A stretch of 64,000 nt of DNA from Candidatus Iainarchaeum sp. Lineage in GTDB: Archaea; Iainarchaeota; Iainarchaeia; Iainarchaeales; JAZDFD01. The translations under genes were made by a program, and so were the position numbers. Each line of letters opens with the position of its first letter. The stretch's first letter is position 1. Shown here piece by piece: positions 2,670 to 40,875 of the stretch. The notes under the pieces are model-generated. The model ran no database searches. It was not told the origin of the DNA and worked only from the letters and a program-made list of their open reading frames with translations. The DNA lies in contig JAZDFD010000001.1 in assembly GCA_043808155.1 (NCBI GenBank), positions 5,501-69,500 on the forward strand, read 5' to 3'.

Positions 2670-4035
2670 CTAACTCAACTTCGTCTCTTTCATCAGTCTT
2701 TTCATCCAAACGCATTAAAGAAGCAAATTTGCCCCTGTTTCTTATAACATATATTACTGCAATAATTATTAATAATCCTGCACCAACATAAAATAACAGT
2801 GTGGTGTCGACTTCATCATCTTCTTTTACACCCGCCTTGTAAATTAAAATCACAGACTCTTTTATGTCGGGAATTATACTTTCTGAAAGATCGTATTTTT
2901 TCGTTCCGAGATATGAGTTCAGTGTGTTCCATCGTGTTTCAAGTTCAATAACTTTTACATCTTCTGCCCATAAATAACGGTTATATTCGTGAAGAATTGT
3001 TTCTACTCCCTGACTTAAACTTGTGAATCCTGTTTCTTCACTTAATTCAGTATCAACACCGTAAACAGAATTGTACACATTATTTTTCTTAATTCTTGTT
3101 CCTAAGTTTCCCTGATAAACTTCGGTTTTTGAAACTGCAGTGTTGTAAATTTCATTTATTTTTTCGTCTCTTTGTGTAGCGTTGATTGCAAGCACATTAA
3201 TTCTTGAAAAACGCGATGGTACTGCGGAAACTGAAGTAATAAATTTTCTCGTGGACAGGGGAATTTGGGTTAATTGTGATACATCAAGATGGAAAGAACG
3301 CAGGTCATCTTCATATTCTTTCCTGCTTGTATCTAAGTTCTCAAGAGTATCAAATGCATCTTCAATTTCTGCAATTAAATCAACAGTTGCATTCGTGTCA
3401 GGATTATTAAAATAATCTAATTTTGATTCGACAACAGAAGTTATTTCATTTGAAAGCGTGTTTGAAGTTGCAACCATCAATGTTAATTTTGAAATTAAAG
3501 AATCAACATCAATCTGCAGACTTTGATATTCTGCAAGTTCTGTTTTAACACTTGAAAGATCTATTTTTTCAGTAGATAATTCATTTGCTGTGTCTGACAT
3601 AAATTTTGAATTTGCACTTGTAAAAAGCCAGGCATCTGAATCCCATGAATAATCTTCATCAAGTTTTGTGAATTCTCTGAGGAAATAAGCTGTTTTGAAA
3701 AGATTTCTCTGGGTAATAGATTGCACAGGTATGTCTAAAGATGCAACTGACAAGGGAATGAAATCAACTAATGCATTGTTTGAAGTTACTGAAACAACCC
3801 AGTATGATTTTTTATCGTTTTTTATCTGAACTTCAGGGGAAATTATTGCTTTTTCCACACTGTCCAGATAATATTCTCCGGTAACATGATTTATTGCATC
3901 CTGAGATGAAAAATCTGCATAAACAGGAATGGCGAAAATCACCAGAATCAACACAAAGAATATTCTTTTAATCATTCTAATAGAGTAATCTTTTATTATA
4001 TTAAAATATATAGGTGAAATAATGAAAGCAAACAT
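2650..4035 (-). CDS. Surface/envelope hypothetical protein (signal peptide and C-terminal TM anchor)
   Basis: N-terminal TM/signal, a long Ser/Thr/Asn-rich ectodomain, and a C-terminal TM followed by a basic tail. Confidence 0.4.
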   Translation of the reverse strand: MFAFIISPIYFNIIKDYSIRMIKRIFFVLILVIFAIPVYADFSSQDAINHVTGEYYLDSVEKAIISPEVQIKNDKKSYWVVSVTSNNALVDFIPLSVASLDIPVQSITQRNLFKTAYFLREFTKLDEDYSWDSDAWLFTSANSKFMSDTANELSTEKIDLSSVKTELAEYQSLQIDVDSLISKLTLMVATSNTLSNEITSVVESKLDYFNNPDTNATVDLIAEIEDAFDTLENLDTSRKEYEDDLRSFHLDVSQLTQIPLSTRKFITSVSAVPSRFSRINVLAINATQRDEKINEIYNTAVSKTEVYQGNLGTRIKKNNVYNSVYGVDTELSEETGFTSLSQGVETILHEYNRYLWAEDVKVIELETRWNTLNSYLGTKKYDLSESIIPDIKESVILIYKAGVKEDDEVDTTLLFYVGAGLLIIIAVIYVIRNRGKFASLMRLDEKTDERDEVELDGWQKY

Positions 4036-4705
4036 TGTAATGATTGAGCCTGAATACCCGGGAAATATAGGGCTTATATGCAGGGTAATGAAAAACTTCG
4101 GATTTTCAGAGCTAATTCTTGTGAATCCCCAAATTGACCATCTGTCAGGGGAAGCTTACGCGCGTGCAATGCATGCTTCAGATGTTCTGAAAAAAGCCAA
4201 AATAGTTAGTTCTTTGGAAGAGGCAATTTCAAAAAGTGAATACGCAGTGGCAACAACTGCAAAAATAACTAAAGGACACAAGTTATTCAGAACTCCTTTA
4301 ACAGCAAAAGAATTTGCAGATAAATTTTTAGAAGGTAATGCAAAAGTTGCAATTGTTTTGGGACGAGATTCTACAGGACTTACAAACTCAGAAATCAGAG
4401 CCTGCGATTTTGTTGTTCACATTCCCGCATCAAGACAATACTCTACACTTAATATTTCACATTCTGCAGCAGTTATTCTTTATGAGTTATTTCAGAAAAC
4501 AAGCAAGCGTGAATTTAAAACTGCAGACACTAAAAGCAGAAAATTACTTATTGATAAATTTGAGAAATTCATCAGAAACCAAAGTCACATCAAAAACAGA
4601 AAAAATCTGATGATCGCCTTTAAAGGCCTTGTTTCTCGTGCAATGATAACAGATAAGGAAGCTTCTTCTCTTATGAGTGCTTTTGATGATAAGAGCAACA
4701 AATAA
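4022..4705 (+). CDS. SPOUT-class tRNA/rRNA 2'-O-methyltransferase (TrmJ/TrmH-like)
   Basis: N-terminal IEPEYPGNIGLICRVMKNFG with LILV.P, plus the SPOUT motif NISHSAAVILYE. Confidence 0.7.
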   Translation: MKANIVMIEPEYPGNIGLICRVMKNFGFSELILVNPQIDHLSGEAYARAMHASDVLKKAKIVSSLEEAISKSEYAVATTAKITKGHKLFRTPLTAKEFADKFLEGNAKVAIVLGRDSTGLTNSEIRACDFVVHIPASRQYSTLNISHSAAVILYELFQKTSKREFKTADTKSRKLLIDKFEKFIRNQSHIKNRKNLMIAFKGLVSRAMITDKEASSLMSAFDDKSNK

Positions 4706-4808
4706 AAACATAAGCGCAACCCTTACATATGTGCAAACCCATCGCGAGCTAAAGCGAGCGTATGGGTTATAGCTCAAGGATATCGCCTTGGCGAGCTAAA
4801 GCGAGCTA

Positions 4809-4869
4809 GTGTCAGTGCAACTGACACGCGGACTCGCCGGCCGTTCGGCGAGCTCGAGGATATCGCCTT
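4809..4869 (+). repeat. tRNA 5' leader module: hairpin gtgtcagtgcaactgacac plus GC-rich hairpin box actcgccggccgttcggcgag-ctcgaggatatcgcctt, abutting tRNA-Trp
   Basis: The 38 nt at 4832..4869 are identical to the reverse complement of 9675..9712, which abuts tRNA-Pro(TGG). ctcgccg/cggcgag forms a perfect 7-bp stem. Confidence 0.6.
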
Positions 4870-5111
4870 GGGGTCATAGTGTAACCTGGTATCACCACAG
4901 GCTCCAGAATTTTTATTTTTGGAGGCGGAGGGCATGTATTGTGCCCAATGACGAATAACAGGTAGGATGAGTCTGCTTTTGCAGGCAGTGACAAAAAATG
5001 TGAGTGCTTAAAGCACGAACAAGTGTCAGTGAAACTGACACGAATTCGCACGCGGAATTTGCCGCGTAGTGGAGTTACCTGTTAATCTGGGTTCAAATCC
5101 CGGTGACCCCA
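4870..5111 (+). tRNA. tRNA-Trp (anticodon CCA) with a ~169-nt intron at the canonical 37/38 position (about 4908..5076)
   Basis: Manual fold. Acceptor GGGGTCA pairs with TGACCCC, anticodon stem ACAGG pairs with CCTGT, anticodon loop is CTCCAGA, T-arm is CTGGG-TTCAAAT-CCCGG, discriminator A. Intron 3' TGGAG can pair with anticodon-loop CTCCA in a BHB-like arrangement. Confidence 0.8.
4908..5076 (+). ncRNA. tRNA-Trp intron with box C/D sRNA-like motifs
   Basis: C-box-like AATGACGA at 4947 is followed by ATAACAGGT, which is complementary to 3'-exon nucleotides 38-45. GATGAG lies at 4967 and CTGA at 5025. An internal copy of the hairpin plus GC-box module lies at 5014..5076. Confidence 0.4.
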
Positions 5112-5201
5112 CATTTCTTTTTTAGAATATTAATGAGGTATTGAGCGAAATCCGCCAATGGGACATAGAGTGTGCAAAGAACTTTAAGTTAATTGTAATA
5201 T

Positions 5202-9516: not shown

Positions 9517-9531
9517 TACAAAAAAATTTGA

Positions 9532-9599
9532 CATATTACTGCAGGTTCGAATGAAATGAGAATCTGCACATATTCGTACCCGCCGGACGTGACGGCGAA
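9532..9599 (+). repeat. Composite two-hairpin repeat, copy 2 (catattactg - hairpin caggttc..gaatctg - cacatat - GC box cccgccggacgtgacggcg)
   Basis: Lies between the two tRNA-Pro genes. The stem mismatch is G-U compatible only on the + strand. Confidence 0.55.
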
Positions 9600-9674
9600 T
9601 GGGACCACCCGGATTTGAACCGGAGTCACAAGCTCCCAAAGCTTGAATGCTAGACCAGACTACACCATGGCCCC
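9600..9674 (-). tRNA. tRNA-Pro (anticodon TGG)
   Basis: Acceptor GGGGCCA pairs with TGGTCCC, anticodon stem CAAGC pairs with GCTTG, loop TTTGGGA, T-arm TCCGG-TTCAAAT-CCGGG, discriminator A. Confidence 0.85.
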
Positions 9675-9735
9675 AAGGCGATATCCTCGAGCTCGCCGAA
9701 CGGCCGGCGAGTGCAGGCACCACTTTCAGTGGCGC
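9675..9735 (-). repeat. tRNA 5' leader module upstream of tRNA-Pro(TGG): GC-rich hairpin box plus hairpin
   Basis: The reverse complement of 9675..9712 equals 4832..4869, the tRNA-Trp leader, over 38/38 nt. It is preceded by hairpin gcgccactgaaagtggtgc. Confidence 0.6.
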
Positions 9736-9912
9736 TAGCTCACTACGTTCGCTAAGGCTTAAACCTTCGACATTAAACTCAAGAATTGCTGAAAAAGATT
9801 TGGTTTGATAAGTATTAAAAATAGAACTTTTAATCCAGTGGAACCAATCCCCTTCTTTTCATGTGAATCAAATTAATTAAGTGAGGAAGAATTTAAATAG
9901 TTTTTCATTGTA

Positions 9913-35216: not shown

Positions 35217-35256
35217 GCGCTTGATGACGATAATATCTTTGTCAATAAAAATAATT

Positions 35257-35325
35257 ATATATTACCGTGGGATTGAACAAAGTGAAATCCCACATATATT
35301 CGCACTCGCCGGGCGCGACGGCGAA
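35257..35325 (+). repeat. Composite two-hairpin repeat, copy 5 (atatattaccg - hairpin tgggatt..aatccca - catatat - GC box cactcgccgggcgcgacggcg)
   Basis: About 40 nt from the tRNA-Thr 5' end and abutting the glyS stop. Same architecture as the other copies. Confidence 0.55.
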
Positions 35326-36825
35326 TTAAAGCGTTTTGTATTCTGCTTTTCCAATTTTTAATTTCCAGAGAGTTTCAGGGAGTTCCTGAATTTTGATTCT
35401 TTTCTGTTCCATTGAGTCACGCTCACGTAAGGTAACAGTTCCTTTCTCTAAAGTATCATAATCTAAAGTAATTGCATAGGGAGTTCCAATTTCATCAGCA
35501 CGCGCGTATCTTTTGCCTATGCTCCCTTTGTCATCGAAGAAAGCATCAAACTCAAAGTCAGAGAGTTCTTTGTAAAGGCTTTCTGCTTTTTCTTTTAACC
35601 CGTCTTTTTTCACTAATGGGAAAACAGCAACAAAGAAAGGTGCAACTCTTGCAGGGAGTTTCAAATATGTTCTTTCTTCAGGTCCTCGCTTTTCTTTTCT
35701 GAAGCCATGGTCTAAAACAACATATAATGTTCTGTCAATTCCTGCTGAAAGTTCAAAAACATGCGGGATGAATTTTTTTCCGTCTTCATTTACTGAAAGA
35801 TCTTTTTTGCTTTCTTTTGAATGGGATTTTAAATCATAATCTGTTCTGTAATTGCATGCCATTAATTCAATCCAACCCAAATCAGTTTCAACTTCAAAAT
35901 CCCAGGTTTCTTTTGCATAAAATGCTCTTGCTTCTTTTGCCAGTTCTCTGAAACGCATTGCTTTTACTGGGATGCCATATTTTTCAAACAACTGCTGAAC
36001 CCTTGTAATATAATAAGCAACTAATTTTCCTGAAACAATTTTTTTAGAAACTGCGTCTTTGCAGGAGATTGGATTCATTTTTTTCCCGATAAGCATTAAA
36101 TTGATTTTGTAATTTTCAACGTCATCAAAATTTTCAACTTCATTTATTTTATCAGGATTGAAGAAAATCTCTGCTTCGAATTGTCCGATTTCACGTTCTC
36201 TGATTAAACTCTGCCTTGGAGATATTTCATTTCTGAATGAAGTTCCTGCCTGTGCAATCCCAAAAGGCAAATTCAGGCGCATTGTTTTGTAAAGTCTGCT
36301 AAAATCCAAAAAAATACTCTGGCAGGTTTCAGGTCTCAAATAACATGGGTTTTGTCCTGTTGCACCAATTTCAGTTTTCATCATCATATTGAAGCGTTTG
36401 ACTTTTCCTAATACGCCTTTGCATTTTGTACATTTGATATTGTTCTTTTCAATAAGTTCTGTGAACTTTTCATCAGCCATGCTTTCAGGGAGCGATTCTT
36501 TTGTTTTTTCTTCAATCAGTTTATCTGCTCTGAAGTGTGAATGGCATTTTAAGCACTGAACAATAGGGTCATCGAAATTCTCTAAATGACCCGAAGCTTT
36601 GAAAACTGCTTCAGGCATAATCTGAGCTCCGTAAATTTCAAGCATATTTTCTTTCTGCACTAATTCTTTTCTCCAGAGTTCAATTATTTTTCGTCTCAGA
36701 GATTCTCCTACTGGTCCGAAGTCCCAAAAACCAGAAGGTGCATTTGGATAAATGTCTGCTGACGGATAGAAAATTGATCTCCTCAAAGCTAAATTTACGA
36801 TTTCTTCTTGTGGCATTGTTCTCAC
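35326..36825 (-). CDS. glyS: Glycyl-tRNA synthetase (archaeal/eukaryotic dimeric type)
   Basis: N-terminal RRSIFYPSADIYPNAPSGFWDFGPVG, class II motifs and a C-terminal anticodon-binding domain. Confidence 0.9.
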   Translation of the reverse strand: MRTMPQEEIVNLALRRSIFYPSADIYPNAPSGFWDFGPVGESLRRKIIELWRKELVQKENMLEIYGAQIMPEAVFKASGHLENFDDPIVQCLKCHSHFRADKLIEEKTKESLPESMADEKFTELIEKNNIKCTKCKGVLGKVKRFNMMMKTEIGATGQNPCYLRPETCQSIFLDFSRLYKTMRLNLPFGIAQAGTSFRNEISPRQSLIREREIGQFEAEIFFNPDKINEVENFDDVENYKINLMLIGKKMNPISCKDAVSKKIVSGKLVAYYITRVQQLFEKYGIPVKAMRFRELAKEARAFYAKETWDFEVETDLGWIELMACNYRTDYDLKSHSKESKKDLSVNEDGKKFIPHVFELSAGIDRTLYVVLDHGFRKEKRGPEERTYLKLPARVAPFFVAVFPLVKKDGLKEKAESLYKELSDFEFDAFFDDKGSIGKRYARADEIGTPYAITLDYDTLEKGTVTLRERDSMEQKRIKIQELPETLWKLKIGKAEYKTL

Positions 36826-37408
36826 TTCTAAATATCAACTCAAAAAGAATTTATAAATATGTTTATGCCAAATTTTTTTCAAAAAAATACTTTTAAATAC
36901 TAGTTAGGACTTTCTTTAAATTAAGATATAGTAGAGTGCAATGATGGCTTGCATAGTTTAGCATTTCTGATTATGTCAAAAACTAGGGGGGTTTGACCCA
37001 TGGTGAAGAAAAAACCTGCTGCAAAAAAAGTAAAGAAGAAAGCAGTAAAGAAAAAGAAGAAATAAGCATGTATGATTATACATTTGATAATAGGGGCATT
37101 TTTGCCTCTCTCTTATTTTTTTGAAATCAGGAAATTATTCAAATAATCTGTTTTTAAATATTAGTGTTTTTCGAGGACAGGGGTTCATTTTTATGCTTTT
37201 TGACACGCGAGTATCTTGCTCAAAAATATATGTTTTGGGGGGACTTGAAATGAAATGCTTTTTAGAAAATGATCTCTACATGTCGGATGATGATGAAGAA
37301 TACAGCGATGAAGAAGATTATTAAGATGCAGATGAATGATTGCTCTGAAAATCTTTGCCCTATTTCTTTTTTTATTTTTTATTATTTTAGCAGTTTATTG
37401 TTTGCGGG

Positions 37409-37948
37409 TTAGGCATTCTTTAAATAGACGACTAAATTCCTTGTCAGAGTTTTAACTGAAGAAACATGTCGGGACATTTCTTTGTTTAATTGTGGGTCCA
37501 AAAATGGACTTATAATTAAAATTGAAAATGAAACTGAAACTATGTGCAGTAAAGTGAATGGAATCTGCATTATCAAAGTCACAATAAATGGCTGATTAAA
37601 CATAAATGAACTCATTATCGGGCCAGTTATAAAATCAAATATTAATACTGCAACTGCTCCCGAGCCAAGAAATAATTTCATAGTAGATTCTTTGTTTTTA
37701 AGGAAAAAATGGAAAAGCATTATTACTGCAGAATATGTGAGGCTTGTTACCAACGTCCACAACCCCAAATGACCTGTAATTATATCAAAAGAAAACATTA
37801 CTGCAAACGCAAACAACGCACCTTTCCACCATGGTTCGTTTTTTGCAGCAGGAAGTGCAAATCCCATTATCGGATCTGAATTAGGGAAAATTCTGAAAAA
37901 TCTGTAAAAATTTGTTAAAATCGCACCAAATAAATATTTGAATTTCAT
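37409..37948 (-). CDS. Hypothetical integral membrane protein (possible small-molecule transporter S-component-like)
   Basis: Five or six TM helices in 179 aa. Confidence 0.35.
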   Translation of the reverse strand: MKFKYLFGAILTNFYRFFRIFPNSDPIMGFALPAAKNEPWWKGALFAFAVMFSFDIITGHLGLWTLVTSLTYSAVIMLFHFFLKNKESTMKLFLGSGAVAVLIFDFITGPIMSSFMFNQPFIVTLIMQIPFTLLHIVSVSFSILIISPFLDPQLNKEMSRHVSSVKTLTRNLVVYLKNA

Positions 37949-38006: not shown

Positions 38007-39038
38007 ATGGATATTATGCCAACAACAAACTTGGAAAGACTCCGAAAACAGCTTATTTCTAAGGCTAAAAAACAGATATCGGAAAAGTATTCAGGAGATG
38101 ACATTCACATAATCAGAGCAGTGAATGTTCTTGAAGACCTTGATTTTATTTTTAATTTACTGAGTGAACATGCACGTGAATGGTATTCAGTGCATTTCCC
38201 TGAACTTAATTCACTTGTGAAAGATAATGAAACCTATCTGAAAATGATAAATGATTTGGGAACACGAGAAAATTTTACAGAATCAAAAATTGAACAGTAT
38301 GCAAAAGAAAAAAATATTTCAAAAATTGCAGAAAAAGCAAAATCCGGAATGGGTTCTGAAATCGGAGAAAAAGAAATGGGAGAAATTAATTCATTAGTGA
38401 AAAATGCACTTTCTCTGAAAAAGGAAAGAAATGCACTTTCTGCATTTATCGAAAAAGAGACTGCTACTTTAATGCCGAACTTTTCAGAACTTGCAGGTCC
38501 GATTTTAAGTGCAAAACTTCTTAATGAAGCAGGAAGTTTCAAAAAACTTGCAATGATGCCAAGTTCCACAATGCAATTATTGGGAGCGGAGAAAGCACTT
38601 TTCAGACATATTAAATCAGGTGCACGCCCTCCAAAATACGGACACTTATTTCAGCATCCTCTTGTAAAACAAATGACACCCTGGCAGAAGGGTGCTACTG
38701 CAAGAACTATTGCAGGAAAATTAAGTATGGCAATTAAGGAAGATTATTTTGGAGATAAGAAAATTGCAGAGGATTTGAAAAAAGATCTTGAAGTAAGACT
38801 TAAGGAAATTTCAGAAACTCACAAGAAAAAAGAACCAAAAGAAGGCTCCAGAACAGATTCACAAACATATTCAAAGCCAAGAAGCTATTCAGATAACTCA
38901 GGACCCCGACCATATTCAAAACCAAAACAATATTCAAAACCAAGAACATATTCAAATAAATCAGGTGCTAAACCATTCAAAACTCAGGGAAATAAATTTC
39001 GTAAACCATTCAAAAAGAAAAATACATTCGGAGCATAG
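38007..39038 (+). CDS. Nop5/Nop56/58 box C/D snoRNP protein with unusual low-complexity C-terminal tail
   Basis: NOP domain GAEKALFRHIKSGARPPKYGHLFQHP. The C-terminal tail has repeated YSKP(R/K)xYS units. Confidence 0.85.
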   Translation: MDIMPTTNLERLRKQLISKAKKQISEKYSGDDIHIIRAVNVLEDLDFIFNLLSEHAREWYSVHFPELNSLVKDNETYLKMINDLGTRENFTESKIEQYAKEKNISKIAEKAKSGMGSEIGEKEMGEINSLVKNALSLKKERNALSAFIEKETATLMPNFSELAGPILSAKLLNEAGSFKKLAMMPSSTMQLLGAEKALFRHIKSGARPPKYGHLFQHPLVKQMTPWQKGATARTIAGKLSMAIKEDYFGDKKIAEDLKKDLEVRLKEISETHKKKEPKEGSRTDSQTYSKPRSYSDNSGPRPYSKPKQYSKPRTYSNKSGAKPFKTQGNKFRKPFKKKNTFGA

Positions 39039-39046
39039 GTGTTTTT

Positions 39047-39709
39047 TTGAAGGAGATTTTCCCTGGAATTTATCTTATCAATGGGAAGTTGGCTACTTTA
39101 AACTCAGTTCCCGGAAATAAAGTTTATGGTGAACAGTTAGTTTCAGTTAAAGATCAGGAATTTCGTATTTGGGACCCCTACAGATCAAAATTAGCAGCTG
39201 CGATTAAAAAAAATCTAAAAACTGTCCCTTTGAAAAAAGATTTCAAAGTTTTATATTTGGGGAGTGCAGAAGGTACAACTGTTTCTCATGTTGCTGAGAG
39301 TGTTGGTGATAAAGGGCTGGTTTTTGGTGTTGAGTTTAGTGAAAGAACTATGAGGAAATTTATTGACATCTGTGAATCGCGTTCAAATATAATTCCGATT
39401 TTAGCAGATGCTAACAAACCAGACTCATATTCGGAATATTTAGAAGGTCAGGGCATTGATTTGCTTTATCAGGATATTGCACAGAAAAATCAGGCAGAAA
39501 TTTTCAATAAAAATGCAAAAATGTTTCTGAAAAAAGGCTCTTTTGGAATGATTGCAATCAAAGCGCGTTCCATAAGCCAGAAAAAAAATATAAAAGAAAT
39601 ATTTGACACAGAGATTGCTGAAATTGAAAAAGAATTTAAAATAATTGAAAGTGTTCCTTTAGCTCCATTTGAGAAAGAACATTTATTTGTTGTTTGCCAA
39701 AAAAAGTAA
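39047..39709 (+). CDS. flpA: Fibrillarin-like rRNA/tRNA 2'-O-methyltransferase
   Basis: VLYLGSAEGTTVSHVAE SAM motif. Adjacent to Nop5, as in most archaea. Confidence 0.9.
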   Translation: MKEIFPGIYLINGKLATLNSVPGNKVYGEQLVSVKDQEFRIWDPYRSKLAAAIKKNLKTVPLKKDFKVLYLGSAEGTTVSHVAESVGDKGLVFGVEFSERTMRKFIDICESRSNIIPILADANKPDSYSEYLEGQGIDLLYQDIAQKNQAEIFNKNAKMFLKKGSFGMIAIKARSISQKKNIKEIFDTEIAEIEKEFKIIESVPLAPFEKEHLFVVCQKK

Positions 39710-39731: not shown

Positions 39732-40298
39732 ATGATTTCAGAAGTTAGAAGAAAATTTATTCACATTGGAATTGGCTCTGTCTTTGTACTGATGGTTTTC
39801 TTTTTAGGAACTATTAATTCATTAATGATTTTATTTCCAATTTATATTATTGGTCTAATTAGTTCATTTTTGATTTTAAAGGGAGTTAGAATTCCATTTG
39901 CTCATGCCTTACTTGATGATGTGCAAAGAACAGATGAAAAGCATCTCCCGGGAAAAGGAGCGCTTTATTTTTTCCTTGGTGCAAATTTAGTTTTAGCTTT
40001 ATTTTGGTGGAATCAGTTATTTGTTTTAGCAGCTCTTTGTACTGTTGTTTTCGGAGATGGTTTTGCAACAATGGTTGGAATTAAGTTTGGTAAACACACA
40101 TTAATTAGCGGAAAAAGTGTTGAAGGAACTCTTGCATGCATTATTGCGTGTGTAATTTTTCTTCATGTTTTATTTCCGTTCAGTATTTACAGAATTGGAT
40201 TTACTGCATTTGTTGCAACTGCAGTTGAACTTCTTCCATTAAATGACAATTTAGGGATGCCATTAGCAACAGCAGCAACATTATTATTGTTAATTTAA
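39732..40298 (+). CDS. CTP-transferase-family membrane protein (CDP-archaeol synthase / dolichol kinase-like)
   Basis: Multi-TM protein with EVRRKFIHIGIG near the N-terminus. The start was taken at M 39732 rather than the ORF-track 39669, which overlaps flpA. Confidence 0.45.
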   Translation: MISEVRRKFIHIGIGSVFVLMVFFLGTINSLMILFPIYIIGLISSFLILKGVRIPFAHALLDDVQRTDEKHLPGKGALYFFLGANLVLALFWWNQLFVLAALCTVVFGDGFATMVGIKFGKHTLISGKSVEGTLACIIACVIFLHVLFPFSIYRIGFTAFVATAVELLPLNDNLGMPLATAATLLLLI

Positions 40299-40317
40299 GA
40301 TAAAGTATGTGATGTCA

Positions 40318-40360
40318 GTGCCACTTTAGTGGCACCCGTACTAGCCGGACGTGACGGCGT
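40318..40360 (+). repeat. tRNA 5' leader module upstream of tRNA-Arg: hairpin gtgccactttagtggcac plus GC box ccgtactagccggacgtgacggcgtg
   Basis: Directly abuts the tRNA-Arg 5' end. An orphan near-identical copy lies at 40763..40804. Confidence 0.55.
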
Positions 40361-40501
40361 GGGCCTGTGGCGCAACGGATAGCGCAGCTGCCTCCTAACG
40401 GACAGATCCGTTAACGATCTGTATGTGCGGGGTTTTCAACCCCGCGATAATAATACGTGGGAGCGAGCAGAAGGTTGAGAGTTCGATTCTCTCCGGGCCC
40501 G
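40361..40501 (+). tRNA. tRNA-Arg (anticodon CCT) with ~68-nt intron at 37/38 (about 40398..40465)
   Basis: Acceptor GGGCCTG pairs with CGGGCCC, D-arm GCGC-AACGGATA-GCGC, anticodon stem GCTGC pairs with GCAGA, loop CTCCTA(A), T-arm GAGAG-TTCGATT-CTCTC. Intron 3' GGAG pairs with loop CTCC in a BHB-like arrangement. The intron contains hairpin gcggggttttcaaccccgc. Confidence 0.8.
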
Positions 40502-40524
40502 ATATTCATTTTTTGTAATTTTAG

Positions 40525-40607: not shown

Positions 40608-40762
40608 CCTTTTTAAAAAAAGGCAGGTTGCAACTTAAACCAATGAGGTTTAAGTGCACACTGAAACCAAAGTTTCAGTTGTGCCAAAAAGGCAAATCCT
40701 TTGGGATTTGCACATCTATTTTTTCAAAACAACTTTTATTAACAACCGAGCCCAAGCGAGAT

Positions 40763-40804
40763 GTGCCACTGCAAGTGGCACTCGTACTAGCCGGACGTGA
40801 CGGC
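40763..40804 (+). repeat. Orphan tRNA-leader-type module: hairpin gtgccactgcaagtggcac plus GC box tcgtactagccggacgtgacggc, with no tRNA following
   Basis: Near-identical to 40318..40359. It lies downstream of three further perfect 8-9 bp hairpins in 40600..40740. Confidence 0.5.
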
Positions 40805-40875
40805 TTAAGCAAATAACGTCCTGGCAATGTACGATTGACGTAAACCTTAAAAACTAGTTTTTACATATAAATTGT

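Follow-up and report, generated by a model that had tools for sequence, protein, structure and literature searches.

The tRNA-Trp(CCA) gene at positions 4870-5111 (+) of the 64,000-nucleotide (nt) stretch of Candidatus Iainarchaeum sp. DNA analyzed here (contig JAZDFD010000001.1; hereafter the window) is interrupted after nt 37 by an intron of 169 nt (4908-5076), and the question is whether this intron encodes a guide for the modification of its own tRNA, as euryarchaeal tRNA-Trp introns do. A sequence-only reading had described it as a long, divergent version of the euryarchaeal arrangement. The proposed relationship is supported by our analysis, which points to guides for position 39 and for the C34 region, but "long and divergent" does not describe the intron well: the order of its boxes appears permuted, and most of its extra length is an insertion of ~50 nt, derived from a leader repeat and specific to the window. 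We put at roughly 0.7 the probability that the intron encodes a circularly permuted guide of the box C/D type for 2'-O-methylation, akin to the tRNA-Trp intron guide of Haloferax, Pyrococcus and Methanosarcina; its function in methylation is a prediction. The type of guide is already known. The permuted order would be new with respect to all 26 units of a 2008 compilation, and a literature search returned no description of a permuted guide within a tRNA intron.

Splice motif and predicted guides and boxes of the tRNA-Trp intron

The intron of tRNA-Trp(CCA) is confirmed as an archaeal tRNA intron of the bulge-helix-bulge (BHB) type. As the earlier reading had proposed, the exons fold canonically only once 169 nt are removed at 37/38: with introns allowed, ARAGORN called tRNA-Trp(CCA) at 4870-5112, and excision leaves a canonical cloverleaf of 74 nt with stems of 7, 4, 5 and 5 bp. 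Neither ARAGORN without its intron mode nor Rfam at the gathering threshold detected the gene. The splice motif belongs to the hBHBh' class, which is defined by a 4-bp central helix including anticodon nt 34-35 and by two 3-nt bulges that contain the splice sites (Yoshihisa 2014, PMC4090602). In the window, C32-C35 (4902-4905, CUCC) pair with GGAG (5071-5074), the 3-nt bulges are AGA (A36, G37 and, past the splice site, A) and UUA (U, U and, past the splice site, A38), and a 3-bp inner helix h' completes the motif. The motif had been recognized before as a pairing of TGGAG with CTCCA; it is real, but its helix comprises the four pairs of CUCC:GGAG and not five.

The comparison with related tRNA-Trp introns that had been called for was run on contigs reached via homologues of the neighboring TrmJ gene, which are independent assemblies from different samples. 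Seven contigs retain the synteny of TrmJ and tRNA-Trp, at protein identities as low as 42%, and five relatives carry an intron at 37/38 as the window does. In order of TrmJ identity, these are L002 (85%, intron of 119 nt), L001 (83%, 120 nt), L003 (67%, 103 nt), L005 (51%, 88 nt) and L006 (42%, 207 nt). Inner helix h' covaries among the six sequences (AUU/AGU, AUU/AAU, CAG/CUG), and the central helix is complete in all but L003, which has one mismatch. With 169 nt in the window and 207 nt in L006, two of these introns are longer than the 11-129 nt that a 2014 review states for introns of archaeal tRNAs (PMC4090602). In L006, a Diapherotrites relative, the extra ~115 nt lie between the 5' splice site and guide 34 (L006 3457-3575) and are rich in AAAGAAAGAAAA-type purine repeats and their pyrimidine complements. 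L002 contains a run of N (~1815-2158), preceded by a partial second tRNA-Trp 5' exon and intron start with another leader variant; this partial copy is probably strain heterogeneity collapsed in scaffolding. Four further TrmJ homologues of 42-45% identity (contigs among L087-L092) had no tRNA-Trp nearby, and the downstream glycosyltransferase was unusable as a synteny anchor because it found no close homologue beyond itself.

We took the canonical architecture from the alignment of 26 tRNA-Trp intron guides in the supplement of Grosjean 2008 (PMC2584109, Additional file 4), whose hosts are haloarchaea, Methanosarcinales, Methanomicrobiales, Thermococcales, Archaeoglobus, Thermoplasmata, Methanobacteriales and Pyrobaculum. 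All 26 units read stem, C, a ~12-nt spacer that pairs near nt 39, D', a loop or hairpin, C', ..UGGAGnn, D and stem (PMC2584109). The modules of the window run from 5' to 3' as guide 34, D, hairpin 1, C, guide 39, D', hairpin 2 and C', followed by a linker and the BHB strand (Table 1). The canonical linear order C-D'-C'-D with a terminal stem is absent; the order is D-C-D'-C', and a closed hairpin stands in the place of the terminal stem. This layout can be understood as a circular permutation in which the break falls between C' and guide 34 and the terminal stem has been closed into hairpin 1.

One half of the unit is directed to position 39. A C-box-like motif had been placed at 4947, and exactly so: AATGACGA sits at 4947-4954 and contains box C, AUGACGA (4948-4954), which matches RUGAUGA at 6/7 positions; its single departure, C for U at position 5, gives the UGACGA that is usual in haloarchaea. 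Directly after box C, ATAACAGGT holds TAACAGGT, the perfect complement of exon nt 38-45, just as described earlier, and the guide extends to the register of position 39. It forms 9 contiguous pairs with U(-1)A38-A45, so that the duplex takes in the last intron nucleotide, and pairing around it reaches 11 of 12 positions (4953-4964 with 5076-5087). G4962, the fifth nucleotide upstream of D', pairs with C39, in agreement with the N+5 rule. The spacer that follows box C is the 12-nt AUAACAGGUAnG in the window, L001, L002 and L003, and in these four introns the C-to-D' spacing is exactly 12 nt and N+5 is C39.

The other half lies upstream. Guide 34 (UUUUGGAG plus G) can pair with the anticodon loop and onward over the 5' exon-intron junction, in a duplex of 8 pairs that includes one G.U and two pairs with intron nucleotides; a complementarity of at least 9 bp is the criterion for archaeal C/D guides. 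RNAalifold predicted this helix independently, and the A-U that the window has at the second intron nucleotide is replaced by a compensatory C-G in L005. The ..UGGAG.. core of guide 34 is found in 26/26 compiled units. Positions 4902-4905 have a double role, as part of the guide 34 target and as the 5' strand of the BHB central helix. Box D, whose consensus is CUGA, varies (CGGA in the window, L001 and L002, CCGA in L003, CUGA in L005 and L006), with an invariant GA. Three of the variants seen here are common among the 26 units, namely UGACGA (haloarchaeal box C), CCGA (haloarchaeal D) and AUGA (Thermoplasmata D) (PMC2584109).

Two candidate kink-turns (K-turns) accompany these elements. In each, a GA borders a hairpin stem on the 5' side, and a 3-nt bulge with a second GA follows the stem, in keeping with the canonical stem, 3-nt bulge and tandem G.A/A.G pairs of a K-turn. 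The anatomy of K-turn 1 (GA, the covarying hairpin 1, NRU, GA) is read from the sequence alone. Hairpin 1 has compensatory changes in 3/6 pairs and 100% of cells paired in the four close sequences, and sliding the partners by 1-3 columns as a control reduced pairing to 42-61%. L005 and L006 have a hairpin at the same site despite an unrelated stem sequence. The second, C'/D' motif reads (C/A)UGA, hairpin 2, RRU, GA and is present in the window, L001, L002 and L003, where L003 has a shorter hairpin of different sequence at the position of hairpin 2; it is absent in L005 and L006.

The alternative nearest to the earlier description is an unpermuted, stretched canonical guide with C at 4947, D'/C' in GGATGAG and CTGA (5035-5038) as the terminal D, and AATGACGA, GATGAG and CTGA do occur in that order. 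GATGAG indeed contains a box, D' (AUGA). The CTGA is not box D, because it lies in the stem of hairpin 5023-5041, within an insertion that L001, L002 and L003 lack. Moreover, the 12 nt that precede it are not complementary to tRNA-Trp, the 5' flank of box C and the 3' flank of CTGA cannot pair into a terminal stem, and the conserved partner of box C is GA 4928-4929, across hairpin 1, in 6/6 sequences. We consider this alternative highly improbable.

Table 1. Features of the tRNA-Trp locus and of the other window regions discussed; guide elements and boxes are predicted.
Feature	Position	Strand	Evidence or remark
5' leader module of tRNA-Trp, structured	4786-4869	+	source family of the intron insertion
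tRNA-Trp(CCA) 5' exon, nt 1-37	4870-4907	+	anticodon CCA at 4904-4906; ARAGORN and sequence
Guide 34 target, CUCCAG/AA (C32-G37 and first two intron nucleotides)	4902-4909	+	pairs with 4917-4924 (minimum free energy fold, RNAalifold consensus)
Intron, 169 nt, canonical 37/38 position	4908-5076	+	ARAGORN; homologous introns in L001, L002, L003, L005, L006
Guide 34	4917-4925	+	complementary to the anticodon loop
Box D variant, CGGA	4926-4929	+	GA abuts hairpin 1 on its 5' side
Hairpin 1 (GGGCAU-GUAUU-GUGCCC)	4930-4946	+	closed equivalent of the box C/D terminal stem; C-stem of K-turn 1
Box C (A-AUGACGA: 3-nt bulge AAU, GA, CGA)	4947-4954	+	GACGA invariant in six introns
12-nt spacer with guide 39	4955-4966	+	4956-4964 pair with 5076-5084
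Box D', AUGA	4967-4970	+	exactly 12 nt past box C; AUGA also in L003, CUGA in L001 and L002
Hairpin 2 (GUCUGC-UUUU-GCAGGC), C-stem of K-turn 2	4971-4986	+	fold, RNAalifold; one compensatory pair
Box C', AGUGACA (AGU bulge, GA, CA)	4987-4993	+	only RRUGA conserved
Window-specific insertion, hairpins 5004-5016 and 5023-5041	4994-5047	+	partial copy of the tRNA-leader module
3' G+C-rich hairpin (CGCGG-AAUUUG-CCGCG) before the BHB strand	5051-5066	+	equivalents GCGG..CCGC in L002, GCGA..UCGC in L001
BHB 3' strand	5071-5076	+	4/4 pairs in 5/6 sequences, 3/4 in L003
tRNA-Trp 3' exon, nt 38-73, then oligo-T tract	5077-5111	+	ARAGORN and sequence
TrmJ/YjtD-family (SpoU) 2'-O-methyltransferase gene	4022-4705	+	upstream of tRNA-Trp; synteny anchor
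Nop5 (aNOP56) gene	38007-39038	+	without N-terminal fibrillarin-binding domain
Fibrillarin gene	39047-39709	+	220 aa, full length
Leader repeat copies	4786-4869, 9676-9760 (-), 40296-40360, 40745-40815, 9527-9600, 35250-35330		also in leaders of L001, L002, L003

Chance, conservation and folding

Since the boxes are short and degenerate, one might ask whether a structured A/U- and G-rich intron contains such words by chance; a sequence-only profile of the known guides cannot tell the site from chance database matches. In 20,000 dinucleotide-preserving shuffles of the intron, an 8-mer complementary to nt 38-45 arose in 57, and together with an NUGA at N+5 in 3. The pattern GA-hairpin-NNN-GA occurs 58 times in 128 kb (both strands of the window), or ~0.08 times expected per 169 nt, and the intron holds two such motifs, correctly spaced. 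Together with the conservation and covariation in five other contigs and with a register that agrees with 26 known units, these numbers make an origin by chance scarcely credible.

The profile and pattern searches were of limited use. An nhmmer profile of the 26 units discriminated poorly: on the C-guide 39-D' segment, L001 and L002 scored 11-12 bits, and the window and L003 ~2 bits. On L003 it aligned in two pieces in reversed order, with the guide 34-D match upstream of C-guide 39-D', at low scores; an end-to-end alignment was obtained only after re-permutation in silico, again with low scores from a profile that does not discriminate. DNA scans of whole collections with the conserved core (ATGACGAATAACAGGTA for metagenome contigs, TGAYGANTAACAGGTNNNNTGA for genome contigs) returned chance matches only, none of them near a tRNA-Trp. 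A regular-expression scan of the window for canonical C-D'-C'-D small RNAs (sRNAs) found none, and the loose C...D pairs that it returned were mostly inside open reading frames (ORFs).

The core shared by the window and the five relatives runs ..UGGAG, 1-2 nt, NNGA, hairpin, NRU, GA, CGA, and this arrangement of guide 34, D, hairpin and C is kept down to 42% identity of the neighboring protein. In the window, L001, L002 and L003, AUGACGA and the nine target-pairing nucleotides of guide 39 are invariant, the flanking hairpins are only 59-88% identical, and the sole variable position of the 12-nt spacer is an unpaired one. Because AUGACGA and guide 39 stay invariant and the adjacent stems change compensatorily, selection appears to act on the sequence and not only on the fold.

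These patterns also bear on the possibility that the intron is a decaying relic, that is, a rearranged ancestral guide that is partly or entirely non-functional and whose remaining pieces aid the folding or splicing of the intron. Such decay would fit the spacer between guide 34 and D, too short by one nucleotide in the window, L001 and L002, the degenerate guide 39 and K-turn 2 of L005 and L006, and the intronless tRNA-Trp of L004. A Nop5 without its N-terminal domain would fit as well, as would the finding that the Haloferax intron and its methylations are dispensable (PMC4090602). A relic does not readily account for the invariance of AUGACGA and guide 39 next to compensatorily changing stems, for the exact 12-nt spacing and N+5 register in four lineages, or for the retention of the core over the whole range of neighbor-protein identity. 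We regard decay as unlikely, and a functional guide as the better reading. The intronless gene in L004 (4378-4451) has the same synteny, with a TrmJ 54% identical to that of the window, and shows that the intron was lost, or never gained, within the clade. With guide 39 and K-turn 2 missing from L005 and L006, it further indicates that the guide system is dispensable over evolutionary time, as it is in Haloferax.

The predicted fold of the free pre-tRNA has a minimum free energy of -101.3 kcal/mol (z = -7 against shuffles), and both guides are paired with their exon targets in it. Imposing the anticodon stem and the BHB motif gave -85.5 kcal/mol, a cost of ~16 kcal/mol, and the guide-bound and splice-competent folds are mutually exclusive. 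One could speculate that the K-turns are L7Ae sites which stabilize the intron or its circle and switch the RNA between the exon-sequestering and the BHB fold, and that the intron controls the timing of splicing and not methylation. This proposal draws on the preference of the free pre-tRNA for the fold that sequesters the splice sites and on the Nop5 without a fibrillarin-tethering domain, but a switch has no need for an exact 12-nt C-D' spacing or for an N+5 register on 39 and 34, nor does it explain why fibrillarin is retained beside Nop5. It seems to us less likely still than decay. For a methylation guide, competition of the guide duplexes with the anticodon stem and the BHB helix, as in Haloferax, implies that the ribonucleoprotein (RNP) most likely acts in trans or before refolding.

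Putative protein partners, proposed circularization and known guides

Nop5 and fibrillarin are encoded in the window, as had been stated earlier, although Nop5 lacks its N-terminal domain. The protein begins with the coiled-coil/Nop domain. Its alignment to solved Nop5 chains is limited to residue ~110-122 onward, and it matches positions 119-402 of the NCBIfam aNOP56 model. Its nearest homologues (Diapherotrites, Micrarchaeota, 'ainarchaeum') are 260-340 aa long and contain PF01798 only, and more distant ones of ~400-450 aa also contain PF21572, the archaeal Nop5 N-terminal domain. Among the ORFs on either side of Nop5 and fibrillarin, no separate gene for this domain was seen. The truncation raises the question of fibrillarin recruitment in these small-genome archaea.

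By analogy with the Haloferax system (PMC11408192; PMC3326292), L7Ae would bind both K-turns, and Nop5 and fibrillarin would assemble on them to methylate the riboses of C39 and of C34 (or C35 in the lineage of the window) of tRNA-Trp. The alternative of C35 follows from box D: N+5 is C34 in L003, L005 and L006, but a strict count leads to C35 in the window, L001 and L002, because the spacer from GGAG to D has 1 nt there and not 2. The RNP would act in trans on other pre-tRNA or tRNA molecules, or before its own RNA refolds. BHB cleavage and ligation would yield an intron circle that joins C' to guide 34 and so restores the order C-guide 39-D'-C'-guide 34-D. The simplest origin of the permutation would be that a canonical unit was duplicated in tandem and the two outer halves were then lost, and the extra ~50 nt would be a later insertion of the tRNA-leader repeat into a dispensable linker.

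A stronger form of this model can be considered, in which a canonical dual guide exists only after excision and circularization by the endonuclease and RtcB, so that circularization is obligatory, and in which the box C/D particle is built on a Nop5 that has no fibrillarin-tethering domain. We hold this form to be possible but doubtful. Were it true, the particle would be a differently assembled methylation RNP, and intron circularization would be a maturation step for a methylation guide and not a by-product of splicing.

Several observations weigh against a methylation guide. Boxes C, D and C' all depart from the consensus. Only 1 nt separates GGAG from D in the window, L001 and L002, as against 2 nt in L003, L005 and L006 and in 26/26 compiled units. 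Guide 34 has a K-turn on one side only, with no box C' 12 nt upstream of box D, and in a circle the distance from C' to D would be ~44-100 nt and not 12. Guide 39 and its target never vary in four sequences, which amounts to conservation without covariation, and guide 39 and K-turn 2 have degenerated in L005 and L006. Among the proteins, the Nop5 of this lineage has no fibrillarin-binding N-terminal domain, and the scan of window ORFs found no gene for L7Ae, the splicing endonuclease or RtcB. With the profile of the 26 units, these introns reach no more than 2-12 bits. A search of 4700-5200 against Rfam at E <= 10 gave no match to a C/D family, so that no Rfam family matches the intron guide, which carries little weight. 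Archaeal C/D guides are poorly represented in models of the Rfam type. A sub-threshold Rfam match of mascRNA to the T-arm is spurious.

The closest known system is the Haloferax-type guide. Common to both are the host gene, the 37/38 position, a pair of guides directed at nt 34 and 39 of the host tRNA, and duplexes across the exon-intron junctions. The likeness extends to the ..UGGAG.. core, the 12-nt C-D' spacer, N+5 on 39, the box variants UGACGA, CCGA and AUGA, and a guide fold that competes with the BHB fold. A hairpin between D' and C' is shared with Methanosarcina and haloarchaea. In contrast to the Haloferax-type order stem-C-guide 39-D'-C'-guide 34-D-stem, the order here is guide 34-D-hairpin-C-guide 39-D'-hairpin-C', with no C' 12 nt before guide 34. 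In addition, GGAG, 1 nt and CGGA replace ..UGGAG, 2 nt and D (2 nt are kept in L003, L005 and L006), target 39 is C instead of U, the intron measures 169 nt instead of ~60-105 nt, and the host is a DPANN archaeon (Diapherotrites). Positions 34 and 39 are the methylated ones of Haloferax tRNA-Trp (Clouet d'Orval 2001 and Singh 2004, cited in PMC11408192; PMC2584109). The Haloferax tRNA-Trp intron circle has been reported as stable and able to guide modifications (PMC3326292).

Permuted guides have precedents outside tRNA introns. Nanoarchaeum equitans has permuted C/D sRNAs with D upstream of C that were detected as circles (Randau 2012, PMC3491384). Its sRNA24 and sRNA26 resemble the intron in having D encoded upstream of C, in attaining the canonical order only as a circle and in their DPANN host. 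They differ in being free-standing genes, with circles seen by inverse reverse transcription PCR. Because the present unit lies inside a BHB intron, the splicing machinery itself would make the predicted circle. Pyrobaculum sR56 and sR57 (Lui 2018, PMC6009581) likewise document circular permutation in the evolution of C/D guide genes; there, D/D' halves swap and the order C...D can still be read, in contrast to the break between C' and guide proposed here. In Sulfolobus solfataricus, the tRNA-Trp intron is also complementary to the regions of nt 34 and 39 and forms a stable, abundant circle of 65 nt without a consensus C/D arrangement (Danan 2012, PMC3326292). Unlike that intron, for which no recognizable boxes were reported, the intron of the window has two clear K-turn motifs with GA dinucleotides.

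If the reading as a guide is correct, DPANN archaea join the hosts of self-targeting tRNA-Trp intron guides, which, with the euryarchaeal, Pyrobaculum and Sulfolobus cases, argues that the pairing of intron and guide is very old. The intron would also be a BHB intron that harbors a naturally occurring, circularly permuted box C/D RNA. Such an RNA predicts either that one-sided anchoring to a single K-turn suffices for site-specific methylation or that the intron circle is the active dual guide, and either outcome would be informative about the roles of the Nop5 dimer and the 12-nt spacing in setting specificity.

Neighboring genes and the tRNA-leader repeat

The TrmJ gene upstream of tRNA-Trp (4022-4705) has a 100% match in a metagenome-assembled genome of 'Candidatus Diapherotrites archaeon' (DPANN), and a look-up of the window protein found no entry on record. 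Position 32 is the methylation site of TrmJ-type enzymes. In the tRNA table of Grosjean 2008, Haloferax tRNA-Trp has the same modified-C symbol at 32 and 34. An ORF of 79 aa on the opposite strand (4812-5051, -), which overlaps leader, 5' exon and intron, is not a gene, because the indels of the relatives in this region are not multiples of three.

The insertion that lengthens the intron belongs to a family of tRNA-associated repeats. Between C' and the 3' G+C hairpin there are 54 nt in the window and 7 nt in L001 and L002. The earlier description of a leader hairpin module copied into the intron is borne out: 5016-5042 is 89% identical to 4802-4828, a copy of 27 nt, and that hairpin pattern occurs at these two window sites only. 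The module consists of GCGAGCUAAAGCGAGCUA, a covarying 7-8-bp hairpin, NCGNAC and U(C/A)GCCGGnCGUGACGGCG, to which the intron insertion aligns, and it has no Rfam match. It forms the 5' leaders of tRNA-Trp, tRNA-Pro(UGG) and tRNA-Arg(CCU), the Pro and Trp leaders sharing 37 identical nt. It also occurs downstream of tRNA-Arg, whose gene is flanked by two direct copies, and in inverted orientation beside tRNA-Pro and tRNA-Thr. Two further candidate motifs in the leader were rejected. A kink-loop in its GC box (GCCG-GA-CGU-GA-CGGC) fails because the copies in the Trp and Pro leaders and the one at 35304 do not retain the GA dinucleotides, and a third K-turn at leader hairpin 4831-4857 fails because its second GA is AA in L001 and L002.

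Elsewhere in the window, an ATGATGA ... CTGA pair, 62 nt apart (37287-37348, +), lies between ORFs of at least 110 aa that end at 36825 and start at 37409. The pair does not form a clean C-D'-C'-D unit and may instead encode the acidic end of a small ORF. The gene for tRNA-Arg(CCU) (40360-40502, +), located just downstream of Nop5 and fibrillarin, has an intron of 68 nt at 37/38, in which no K-turn or guide features were seen and which forms a strong G+C hairpin (GCGGGG..CCCCGC). The leader repeat itself, with its covarying 7-8-bp hairpin and the near-invariant ACUnGCCGGnCGUGACGGCG, adjoins 5/7 of the window tRNA genes in either orientation.

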